NCBI GenBank assembly: GCA_050049275.1
Contig: JASFWO010000001.1
Span: 1-24,564, forward strand
Direction of reading: 5' to 3'
Origin: Flavobacteriaceae bacterium
GTDB taxonomy: Bacteria > Bacteroidota > Bacteroidia > Flavobacteriales > Flavobacteriaceae
DNA length: 24,564 nt
Each line of letters opens with the position of its first letter. The stretch's first letter is position 1. Positions 4,401 through 5,382 of the stretch are shown here, piece after piece. A program made the position numbers and the translations under genes. The notes beneath the pieces are model-generated. The model ran no database searches. It was not told where the DNA came from and worked only from the letters and a program-made list of their open reading frames with translations.

Positions 4401-4950
4401 AAGACAATCCCACTACAAAAGCGATTAGCACCAACCAACGGTCGCCACGGGGGTTGTGCATATCGGCTTCCCAACGAAGCCCCAGCCAAAAAAGCAATGC
4501 CAAAAGGCAAGTAGCCATTGCATAAACTTCTGCTTCAACCGCGTTAAACCAAAAACTGTCTGAAAAAGCAAACCCTAAGGCACCAACCGCAGCCGCAACA
4601 AAAATCCCAGCATTGTGATCTCCTTGATTGTTAGGATCTAGAAAACGTTTGCTCAGCCGCGTGATGGTCCAGAATAAAAATAAAATCGTAAAAGCACTAG
4701 CCAACACCGACATCATATTCACCGCTAGAGCGATGTACTCAGCAGAGGGTGCTAGGCCAGCAAAAACGGCCCCTACCATTTGGAAAAATGGCGCTCCGGG
4801 CGGATGCCCTACTTGTAGCTTGGCCGAGGTAGCGATGTATTCACTGCAATCCCAATAACTGGCCGTGGGTTCTACAGTGAGGATGTAGGTGCAAAGCGCC
4901 ACCGCAAAGACTGCCCAACCCACGAGGTTGTTCCATTGATTGTAGTTCAT
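1426..4950 (-). CDS. DUF2723 multi-pass membrane protein (GT-C fold, TMEM260-like putative glycosyltransferase), about 1174 aa
   Basis: N-terminal TVEPTASYWDCSEYIATSAKLQVGHPPGAPFF, SDSFWFNAVEAEVYA, ERDYA, WDDHDRS and IFTIGDNDTF are DUF2723 hallmarks. The start was moved from 5031 to the ATG at 4950 (MNYNQWNN) because the extra 27 codons cover a promoter-like region. Confidence 0.88.
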   Translation of the reverse strand: MNYNQWNNLVGWAVFAVALCTYILTVEPTASYWDCSEYIATSAKLQVGHPPGAPFFQMVGAVFAGLAPSAEYIALAVNMMSVLASAFTILFLFWTITRLSKRFLDPNNQGDHNAGIFVAAAVGALGFAFSDSFWFNAVEAEVYAMATCLLALLFWLGLRWEADMHNPRGDRWLVLIAFVVGLSFGVHFMGLLTIPAIGMLYYFKNTQKITIQNFLIANVISVSILLFIFKLLLPSTLAFFGYAEVFFVNQVGLPFNSGTIIAGTVIVMFFWFALKWTQAKKWVQINTVLLCVLFILIGFSSWIMLPIRANANTVINENAPTDARSLLAYYNLEQYPETHLFYGPMFSDMYAGQDANKPYVDDKPKYERDEKTKKYIVVNEWEQARVNSNSAHEGILPRMWSSGNAVNYMRYFGVVDFDIKPEYRNEQQLIQMVNEFIGRWNEGDADVEDYHRFLQQFGSFLNIEKPSFFTNLRYMFEFQMGYMYWRYFLWNFSGRQNDIQGKLDRTNGNWISGIPFIDNWRLGDQDALPSELQNNKGKNKYYMLPLLFGLFGLLFLYQKDPKRFWVVLLLFLFTGLALKVYLNERVFEPRERDYALVGSFYAFSIFIGFGVLALQTQLKNYLRPKLAVGLTATLSLLAVPVLMASENWDDHDRSGRYTAQSTAKAYLDSVEEGVDAMIFTIGDNDTFAIWYVQEIEGYRTDVRSINTQLLATDWYIDQLKRKTYESTPIPSQLKHAQYAYGVRDYIKHEALLDSVRWDIDDFMNWVSSDHPRTKYKHLLQQYGADLDQIPKATQELVYYPTNKLRVPVNKENVLKSGVVKPQDAHLIVDYIDIDLPTSGIYKNRLLMLDILKNNDWERPIYFTGGSYDEEEYFWMKDYLQLEGLVYKLVPIRTLINPNNPYQMGRIDADKMYEIVKKWDWGNADSPLIYHDPETRKNSISFRSNISRLAESLIDEGQADKAIDVLDLAMDKMPLESFGYYSLLTPFVEAYYRAGAPSKAQNLMRELSKGYREYMAYYASISLDDQYNMSTELLAYVERYRSLVETIVQSRDYEALAEEYKLFYDAIKPFSYFYGDYDFYAELQAFVPALYKANDTKAGLDLFEKIATIYQNRLELYGNIEADDLTYYASSILVDVGAYRSLLESLKRHEENQEILQAAQKTFDSASARFEQLRS

Positions 4951-4973
4951 ACAAACGAATTGATTAGGAGGTA

Positions 4974-4981
4974 CGAAAGTA
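4974..4981 (-). promoter_or_regulatory. Variant -7 promoter element for DUF2723
   Basis: Minus-strand TACTTTCG (one mismatch to TAnnTTTG), 23 nt upstream of the ATG at 4950. Confidence 0.45.
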
Positions 4982-5019
4982 CACAATTCTGATTTTGAAG
5001 TGAAATCAAAAACAAAGTA

Positions 5020-5049
5020 TTGGTCTTCCAAAACTTTATTTTATTTTTG
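5020..5049 (+). promoter_or_regulatory. Bacteroidota sigma-70 promoter of the tRNA-Gln locus
   Basis: TTG (5020-5022), a 19-nt spacer, then TATTTTTG (5042-5049), matching TTG-N19-TAnnTTTG. It ends 9 nt before the interrupted tRNA copy at 5059. Confidence 0.7.
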
Positions 5050-5058
5050 CACCTCCAA

Positions 5059-5141
5059 TGGCCTATGGTGTAAGCTACCTAAGACCAGCCAAACTGGCAA
5101 CACGCCTGCCTGCCAGCAGGCAGGTCTGATTCAAAATCAGA
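5059..5141 (+). pseudogene. Interrupted duplicate of the tRNA-Gln 5' half
   Basis: TGGCCTATGGTGTAA (5059-5073), CTGGCAACACG (5094-5104) and TCTGATT (5125-5131) together equal the first 33 nt of the intact tRNA. They are separated by two 20-nt insertions. No T-arm or 3' acceptor strand follows. Confidence 0.85.
5105..5124. repeat. 20-nt GC-rich palindrome (REP-like)
   Basis: CCTGCCTGC-CA-GCAGGCAGG: perfect 9-bp arms around a 2-nt centre. Confidence 0.8.
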
Positions 5142-5191
5142 CTAAAACTGGCAGAAGTGAATTTCGGCTTTAAACGAAGTAATTGATATTT

Positions 5192-5264
5192 TGGCCTATG
5201 GTGTAACTGGCAACACGTCTGATTTTGGTTCAGAAGAGTCTAGGTTCGATCCCTAGTAGGCCAA
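5192..5264 (+). tRNA. tRNA-Gln (anticodon TTG)
   Basis: Cloverleaf: acceptor TGGCCTA/TAGGCCA (U1-A72, typical of tRNA-Gln), D-arm, anticodon arm TCTGA-TTTTGGT-TCAGA, T-arm CTAGG-TTCGATC-CCTAG. CCA is not encoded. Confidence 0.97.
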
Positions 5265-5265
5265 C

Positions 5266-5294
5266 AAAAAATCCCGCAAACAGCGGGATTTTTT
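5266..5294. terminator. Bidirectional intrinsic terminator after tRNA-Gln
   Basis: AAAAAATCCCGC-AAACA-GCGGGATTTTTT, with A and T tracts on either side. It lies between the tRNA and the convergent desaturase gene. Confidence 0.85.
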
Positions 5295-5382
5295 CTTTGC
5301 ACACTGTTTTTTTTAAAAATCAAGATTTTTTAAAAAAAAATAAAACAAAAAAAGCGCTTATCAGGGAGTATAAATGAAAAAT

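Follow-up and report, generated by a model that had tools for sequence, protein, structure and literature searches.

In a 24,564-nt stretch of DNA from a Flavobacteriaceae bacterium (assembly GCA_050049275.1, contig JASFWO010000001.1; here called the window), a hairpin upstream of a tRNA-Gln gene displays the glutamine codon CAA in its loop and is complementary to the anticodon arm of the tRNA encoded behind it. The question raised by this locus is whether such a hairpin acts on the tRNA, or whether the match has another origin. The tRNA-Gln(UUG) is the only tRNA of the window; it is intact and encoded on the forward strand (5192-5265, anticodon 5225-5227; ARAGORN, Rfam score 64 bits). The hairpin, TCTGA-TTCAAAA-TCAGA, is found on the same strand at 5125-5141 by inspection of the sequence, by a repeat finder and by folding. 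The genuine anticodon arm (5218-5234) reads TCTGA-TTTTGGT-TCAGA, and CAAAATCAGA, the last ten bases of the hairpin (5132-5141), is the exact complement of 5218-5227, which is nt 27-36 of the tRNA. The repeat finder extends the complementarity between leader and anticodon arm to 18 nt at 89%. The sequence and position of the hairpin and its exact complementarity to the tRNA, as given in a preliminary description of this DNA, were all confirmed. The 5-bp stem and 7-nt loop that were proposed there can be read in the sequence, but the lowest-energy fold of the isolated hairpin is a 9-bp stem (5123-5131 with 5135-5143) closed by a CAA triloop (-9.9 kcal/mol). Seven of the ten bases that are complementary to the tRNA are used by this stem.

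The make-up of the hairpin indicates where it comes from. TCTGATT is a direct copy of tRNA nt 27-33, while CAAAATCAGA is the reverse complement of nt 27-36, and copying of the tRNA's own arm, the simpler origin that the preliminary description had also considered, accounts for all 17 nt. The CAA "codon" and the 10-nt complementarity are therefore inherited from that arm, seven nucleotides having been copied directly and ten inversely, and they do not count as evidence of a sensing design. By our rough estimate an exact 10-mer complement within about 130 nt is expected approximately 1e-4 times by chance. More than 15 independent loci have the identical 17-mer in the same place upstream of tRNA-Gln, and this recurrence rules out a chance origin. 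A loop borrowed from tRNA-Leu(CAA) was also considered, as the anticodon loop of that tRNA is likewise TTCAAAA and 11 nt are shared; such an origin is possible but less economical, since tRNA-Gln provides seven direct and ten inverted nucleotides. As a general motif the hairpin could not be traced: a search of 400 genomes of the family allowing one mismatch gave mostly chance matches, and none of the 33 loci examined from it, three exact matches outside the genus included, was near a tRNA.

The hairpin is part of a 133-nt insert (5059-5191) that separates the promoter from tRNA-Gln(UUG). Its parts are, in order, tRNA nt 1-15, a 20-nt insert, nt 16-26, a GC palindrome, the hairpin and a 50-nt spacer, so that 5059-5131 is a copy of tRNA nt 1-33 in three blocks. 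The first block (5059-5073, forward strand), recognized by the repeat finder and by comparison with congeners, is an exact copy of nt 1-15, and the second (5094-5104, forward strand), recognized by the repeat finder and by alignment of units, is an exact copy of nt 16-26. The 20-nt segment between them (5074-5093, forward strand) lies in the D-loop of the pseudo-copy; it is missing in the related genome G003, and other units have other mini-palindromes here, with a mean identity among units of 0.28-0.39. Nt 26 and 27 of the pseudo-copy are separated by a nested 20-nt GC-rich palindrome, CCTGCCTGCCAGCAGGCAGG (5105-5124), which is a member of a dispersed family. Within it CTGCCAG (5110-5116) is complementary to CTGGCAG at 5148-5154 on the forward strand, and the two can form an alternative helix that encloses the hairpin. 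In the spacer a further forward-strand hairpin, H3 (5161-5180), with the stem ATTTCG / CGAAGT and the loop GCTTTAAA, was read by eye and is only suggestive.

The insert is preceded by a forward-strand -7 promoter box of the Bacteroidota type (TAnnTTTG), TATTTTTG (5042-5049), which begins 17 nt upstream of base 1 of the pseudo-copy. The tRNA is followed by a terminator-like hairpin (ATCCCGC/GCGGGAT) and a T-run at 5271-5294 on the forward strand, seen in the sequence and by the repeat finder and absent from a simple terminator scan; it is the only terminator at the locus. Scanning the window for sigma-70 promoters and terminators gave nothing, a result that is uninformative for Bacteroidota. 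A likeness between the spacer and the upstream segment 4953-5004 is not collinear and was judged to be a coincidence. About 60 nt upstream of the tRNA promoter there is also an inverted repeat (4983-5011) that is conserved in all congeners, mostly as TTTCTCA..TGAGAAA. In the window it reads TCTGATTTTGAA, which copies tRNA nt 27-36 and has 12 nt exactly complementary to 5130-5141; this window-specific match to tRNA and hairpin is probably coincidental.

Two familiar causes of interrupted or duplicated tRNA sequence do not fit the insert. An intron or a split tRNA was rejected: the intact tRNA gene is uninterrupted, a group I intron would need more room than the insert offers, and no Rfam family matched the insert. 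Partial tRNA copies also remain as attL and attR after integrase-mediated insertion of islands or prophages; Williams is said to have given an example of such tRNA att-site copies in 2002. The present locus resembles them in that a direct repeat of part of the tRNA brackets the inserted DNA, with the break at the anticodon loop. However, there is no integrase here, the insert of about 110 nt is gene-less, it is the 5' half of the tRNA that is repeated, and the loops are unequal (TTCAAAA vs TTTTGGT), which is not expected from site-specific recombination. Neither an ORF or integrase nor an identical crossover core was found in the 133-nt insert, and the build with a spacer of about 50 nt is common to all units; an att site or prophage remnant was therefore rejected as well.

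Comparison with congeners shows that the host dispenses with the element. In 11 of them the promoter is joined directly to tRNA-Gln and there is no insert, while the long insert with the identical 17-mer is found in G003, in G010 and in the genome of the window. Three others (G013, G009, and G008) have a decayed form of 68 nt, in which a diverged pseudo-half and a remnant of the palindrome are left and the hairpin is gone. The nearest relatives of G003, G005 and G018, are without the insert. G003, which is 99% complete, contains only one tRNA-Gln-like sequence, and the gene carrying the unit is therefore probably the sole source of tRNA-Gln.

Outside these genomes the same unit was found in two ways. 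A metagenome scan anchored on the start of the palindrome and on the real tRNA, and hence blind to the hairpin, gave seven contigs with a Gln unit. When 185,579 species genomes were scanned for exact matches to a 19-mer, an approach biased towards intact hairpins, 11 matches were obtained, and nine of these are situated about 50 nt before a tRNA-Gln(UUG). The nine include metagenome-assembled genomes of Cyclobacteriaceae, Roseivirgaceae, and Flavobacteriaceae, all with the same gene-less build. The Cyclobacteriaceae carriers belong to the Cytophagales, as do presumably those of the Roseivirgaceae. The Gln unit is widespread, yet it is rare and patchily distributed among Bacteroidota species. 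It is a defined gene-less module of about 113 nt, with a core as conserved as the tRNA, scattered over Flavobacteriales and Cytophagales. At two loci (L125 and L140) it occurs in tandem with a decayed upstream unit.

Several leaders contain additional palindromes. In three leaders of the G010 type an extra hairpin, TCTAACAAAAATGTTAGA, follows nt 26 of the pseudo-copy with CACG on both sides, as if a mini-palindrome had been inserted with duplication of a 4-nt target. In L125 (1887-2008) and in L138 the pseudo-Gln D-loops contain an 18-nt palindrome, TCCCGATAGCTATCGGGA, or nested versions of it, replacing four bases.

On balance, the hairpin is probably the altered anticodon arm of a dead partial tRNA-Gln copy inside a small gene-less insert. 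The gene-less unit of about 113-133 nt, fronted by the dead copy, sits between the promoter and what is probably the only tRNA-Gln gene. It is built from tRNA nt 1-26, in some units interrupted by mini-palindromes in the D-loop, the 20-nt GC palindrome, TCTGATT with the inverted nt 27-36, and a spacer of about 50 nt, and it belongs to a group of Bacteroidota cassettes made of pseudo-tRNA and palindrome and situated at tRNA genes, some of which carry a tiny GIY-YIG nuclease gene. With tRNA-Gln sequence on either side, the unit could be gained by recombination into any tRNA-Gln gene, and recombination between the same direct repeats could lead to its loss or its tandem amplification. The unit would be transcribed passively as a 5' leader and then be removed by RNase P. 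The invariance of the hairpin would on this explanation reflect a constraint on the unit and not a regulatory need of the host; candidate constraints are capping of the anticodon-stem strand of the pseudo-copy and keeping the match to tRNA-Gln.

This invariance counts against the explanation, being greater than a scar would require. When ten Gln units were aligned, the identical 17-mer was found in eight of them, and it is also present in nine genome records; these eight were found independently of the hairpin, and the identity extends across two orders. Mean pairwise identity, calculated with the two L125 units left out, is 1.00 for the hairpin, 0.95 for pseudo-tRNA nt 1-15, 0.87 for the GC palindrome, 0.54-0.61 for the spacer, and 0.39 for the D-loop insert. 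In the L125 tandem the unit beside the tRNA reads TCTGATT-AAAATCAGA, where the C is missing and CAA is lost, and the decayed upstream unit reads TCTGA--CAAAATCAG. The anticodon arm of tRNA-Gln itself is invariant in every carrier found. The unbroken invariant core consists of CAACACG, the palindrome and the hairpin, and these 44 nt are identical between G003 and a Cyclobacteriaceae chromosome. The preliminary description had named an unconserved loop as evidence against a function of the hairpin; the loop is kept, and CAA is present in all but one unit. Drift would be expected in the loop triplet of a 9-bp hairpin, yet it is not seen there, and the spacers have diverged with compensatory changes while the hairpin is unchanged.

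Pairing is also conserved around the hairpin. RNAalifold and counts of pairs back the hairpin, in which the pairs never vary, and the enclosing helix CTGCCRG/CYGGCAG, which competes with the palindrome's own hairpin. In the enclosing helix there are three compensatory pairs, and covariation is 0.19 compared with 0.146 in shuffles (11 of 500). The position of H3 is kept while its stems differ between units, as judged by eye since the MAFFT alignment is out of register here, and the folding z-scores of H3 are not significant.

The leader is almost certainly co-transcribed with the tRNA. A TAnnTTTG box begins 16-25 nt upstream of 13 other tRNA genes in the genome of the window, whereas no such box is present in 5050-5191, that is, between the pseudo-copy and the tRNA. 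An internal promoter directly before the real tRNA was accordingly rejected, and because the sole box precedes the pseudo-copy the tRNA is likely to be transcribed through the leader. A metatranscriptome contig (run X7, 143 nt) runs from a spacer through the pseudo-half, the palindrome and the hairpin into a second spacer, the units being in tandem with a period of 113 nt. Its depth is 15.7 compared with 3-5 for the flanking genes (about 3-4x), these being contig-level data where DNA carry-over is possible.

If the leader is present in the precursor, its predicted effect on folding is large. Calculated with a nearest-neighbour model, the duplex between leader and anticodon arm has an energy of -24.0 kcal/mol, compared with -14.4 kcal/mol for two separate hairpins, and the probability of this pairing in the precursor ensemble is about 1; as all the energetics given here are equilibrium modelling, they leave out co-transcriptional order, tertiary contacts, and modifications. 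The minimum free energy of the precursor is -75.6 kcal/mol, compared with -64.1 kcal/mol for the leader fold plus cloverleaf, and the native fold has a probability of about 0 with the wild-type leader. In the structure of lowest energy, the 3' acceptor strand of the genuine tRNA is taken up by the 5' strand of the pseudo-copy, and the tRNA's anticodon arm forms a duplex with the hairpin. Scrambling the 3' half of the hairpin raises the probability of the native anticodon stem from about 0 to 0.81. Only a double scramble, of the hairpin's 3' half together with the pseudo acceptor strand, restores the native fold, the native anticodon stem then reaching 0.92 and the acceptor stem 0.94. The decayed short leaders of G013, G009, and G008 fold natively. 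The leader is thus predicted to trap the precursor by capturing the 3' acceptor strand as well as the anticodon arm, and a passive passenger with such a predicted capture of the only tRNA-Gln would be surprising. The unit may serve as a natural test bed for kinetic versus thermodynamic control of pre-tRNA folding.

These properties suggest the alternative that survives best, namely that the CAA hairpin has been selected in cis for pairing with the nascent tRNA-Gln at its anticodon arm, either throttling or timing its maturation or shielding the loop until release by RNase P. The strongly favoured pairing in the models, the loss of the native anticodon stem that depends on the hairpin, the invariance of the 17-mer with its loop across diverged units, and the occurrence of the leader in an RNA library at about 3-4x the depth of flanking genes all agree with this, as do G-U pairs on the sense strand in the base of the hairpin and in the enclosing helix. 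Still, we consider it a doubtful reading. The sequestering of the anticodon arm in the precursor that the preliminary description had suggested holds in the models, but it is difficult to reconcile with a host that dispenses with the element: 11 congeners are without it and three have only decayed forms, and the element is very rare among Bacteroidota species. The hairpin has been lost from the upstream units of tandem arrays, one unit adjacent to the tRNA is without the C of CAA, and the cassettes at other tRNAs do not display their own codon. Seven of the ten complementary bases are needed in any case for the stem of the hairpin, and the equilibrium calculations disregard the order of transcription, tertiary contacts and modifications.

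Known systems offer partial parallels to pairing of this kind. Pairing between anticodon and intron occurs in intron-containing pre-tRNAs of eukaryotes and archaea. There, as in the predicted fold here, sequence that is not part of the tRNA extends the anticodon helix of the precursor; the partner in the present case is, however, a 5' leader, neither a BHB motif nor a splicing endonuclease is present, and the leader would be cut off by RNase P. Transcribed spacers derived from or flanking tRNAs are found in E. coli, where the tyrT 178-bp repeats with rtT RNA and the sRNA sponge 3'ETS-leuZ are examples, and the 3'ETS shows that spacers of pre-tRNAs can act in trans. The leader would resemble these in being tRNA-derived or tRNA-flanking sequence that is co-transcribed and released by processing, but the E. 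coli elements are located 3' of the tRNA and none of them is known to pair with the anticodon arm of its own tRNA.

A variant that we regard as somewhat less probable still combines mobility with pairing: the unit would be a mobile leader specific for tRNA-Gln, whose CAA hairpin has been selected to pair with the nascent arm, so that a selfish insert gates the maturation of the tRNA or protects its loop. Were this the case, the unit would constitute a cis-acting anti-tRNA module without a described counterpart, gating maturation of the only tRNA-Gln of the cell. In any event, the locus offers a concrete example for studying how selfish inserts in essential tRNA transcription units are tolerated, or even put to use, by the cell.

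The probable origin of the hairpin in a dead tRNA copy places it among related cassettes at other tRNA genes. G003 and G018 have pseudo-copies with the same palindrome at tRNA-Pro(GGG), Leu(UAG), Leu(CAA), and Arg(CCU). In G003 the pseudo-half and the genuine tRNA-Leu(CAA) are separated by an ORF of 82 aa with a match to the Pfam family GIY-YIG (1.7e-17), and small GIY-YIG homologues adjoin tRNA-Arg(UCU), tRNA-Ala, and tRNA-Met in five congeners. At four loci of congeners (L076, where it occupies 118-366 on the minus strand, L086, L089, and L090) a GIY-YIG ORF of 82-92 aa is wedged between pseudo-tRNA pieces and an intact tRNA gene. In G014 the stop codon TAG of such an ORF falls within GGATAG of the pseudo-Arg D-loop, and the pseudo-Arg copy behind the nuclease gene has an altered anticodon arm, TCCGATTCTATCGGA, that is the same as in the gene-less Arg unit of the window's genome. 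Since the altered arm is found in both, gene-less and gene-bearing Arg units share descent.

This Arg(UCU) unit forms a gene-less leader of its own in the genome of the window, on the minus strand of another contig (C69:2587-2700). It is composed of pseudo-tRNA nt 1-9, a 40-nt cluster of GC palindromes, nt 10-25, the hairpin TTCCGATTCTATCGGAA, which keeps TCT in its loop, and a 30-nt spacer. The insert is missing from most congeners and occurs twice in tandem in G003 (loops TTTCA and TTTTTAA). The loops at tRNA-Arg(UCU) vary (TTCTA, TTTCA, TTTTTAA), and the cognate codon is not displayed. No inverted copy of the anticodon is present in the Ala, Leu(UAG), and Pro cassettes; the Leu(CAA) cassette alone shows an inverted copy of the loop, which is weak at 8 nt. 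The preliminary description had proposed a search for codon-displaying hairpins before other tRNA genes, and the cassettes found there do not show their own codon.

Like its sister cassettes, the unit of the window is a partial tRNA copy beside an intact gene, with a nested GC palindrome and a patchy presence that varies among relatives, and tandem arrays and gene-less units occur in both. Unlike them, the Gln unit is specific for tRNA-Gln, contains no GIY-YIG gene of about 80 aa, and has an invariant hairpin derived from the tRNA's own arm. No nuclease gene was seen in the unit of the window or beside any Gln unit, and a search of the window's genome (57% complete) for small GIY-YIG genes was negative. 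Judged from sequence, the link of the Gln unit to the nuclease appears to be one of family resemblance only. A full-text literature search found no account of bacterial units of GIY-YIG gene and palindrome lodged at tRNAs, and such cassettes are apparently undescribed; the Gln unit provides a handle on how they spread.

Small single-domain GIY-YIG proteins are known from another context. The Ssn proteins are single-strand-specific GIY-YIG nucleases associated with NTS/SRM hairpin repeats (Chenal et al., 2025; PMC11893778), and the paper describing them does not mention tRNA genes. Both Ssn and the REP/BIME repeats with their RAYT transposases are similar to the present one in that small single-domain GIY-YIG proteins, here in relatives, go together with dispersed mosaics of GC-rich hairpins; they differ in that the repeats here are found inside pseudo-copies of tRNAs, and the GIY-YIG proteins are here known from sequence alone. 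The resemblance allows for a role of the hairpin at the DNA level. The hairpin lies directly beside the GC palindrome and forms an inverted repeat with the genuine anticodon arm, and it might be read or used by the cassette machinery when the unit is copied into tRNA-Gln genes, the candidates being an Ssn-like single-strand GIY-YIG nuclease or template switching. This is consistent with the single continuous invariant block of 44 nt (CAACACG, palindrome, and hairpin), with the presence of GIY-YIG genes at sister cassettes, and with the requirement of Ssn nucleases for specific bases flanking their own hairpin (PMC11893778). However, the same palindrome has unrelated flanks at Pro and Arg loci, so a nuclease would not need the hairpin, and no nuclease gene is linked to any Gln unit. 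Such a role is therefore unlikely, if only slightly more so than that of a mobile leader acting on the nascent arm.

The two remaining explanations fare worse. A neutral scar without constraint, with the identity of the 17-mer due to recent spread of one unit, would agree with the patchy occurrence over two orders and with the decay of old units, but in these same units only about 50-60% identity is left between spacers and the D-loop inserts are wholly different, while the hairpin has no substitution. The invariance of the hairpin, loop included, is beyond what a neutral scar explains, and we give this reading little credence. A sensor of the T-box type, or an anti-tRNA that, once released, would bind mature tRNA-Gln in trans, has only the codon-anticodon complementarity in its favour and is highly improbable, as Rfam scans gave no T-box match at any threshold, CAA is located in the terminal triloop of a closed 9-bp hairpin and not in an internal specifier loop, there is no antiterminator/terminator switch, the gene downstream is the tRNA itself, and leaders removed by RNase P are normally degraded.

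The comparison with T-box riboswitches is nevertheless instructive, as these also present, in a leader, a codon complementary to a tRNA anticodon. The leader of the window lacks a Stem I specifier loop, a T-box sequence and a terminator switch; it precedes a tRNA gene and not a gene for an aminoacyl-tRNA synthetase or for amino-acid metabolism, and the host can do without it. Scans of 4950-5320 at the gathering threshold and at E-values up to 10 revealed neither a T-box nor any other Rfam family in the leader, weak matches at the relaxed threshold stemming from the terminator. That a T-box consensus is lacking, as the preliminary description had remarked, was borne out by these scans; the regulatory sensing that it had also entertained was not, given the lack of T-box features, a dispensable element and other cassettes without their own codon. 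A codon-anticodon match can evidently arise merely from a rearranged tRNA copy in a leader, which calls for caution in reading such hairpins as sensors.

The palindrome is not confined to tRNA genes. Its family is seen in G003, G018, G005, and the genome of the window, and in G003 it is dispersed over at least eight loci, some of them without a tRNA, where it forms mosaics with other hairpins. An intergenic region of the window's genome (C104:1767-1803) contains a 12-bp hairpin of the same family, GCCTGCCTGACA-11 nt-TGTCAGGCAGGC. At five tRNA-free loci of G003, G005, and G018, mosaic GC-rich hairpin repeats include the modules CCTGYCTG..CAGRCAGG, ATGCCGTGCCTGACACGGCAT, and GACTCCCGC..GCGGG, and one of these loci (L075) consists of two tandem units of 127 nt with a REP/BIME-like look. 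Finally, on contig C37 of the window's genome, a 13-nt direct repeat of the 3' end of tRNA-Ser(UGA), AATCCCTCTTTCT, is found about 110 nt after the tRNA and beyond its terminator, and it may be the footprint of another cassette.
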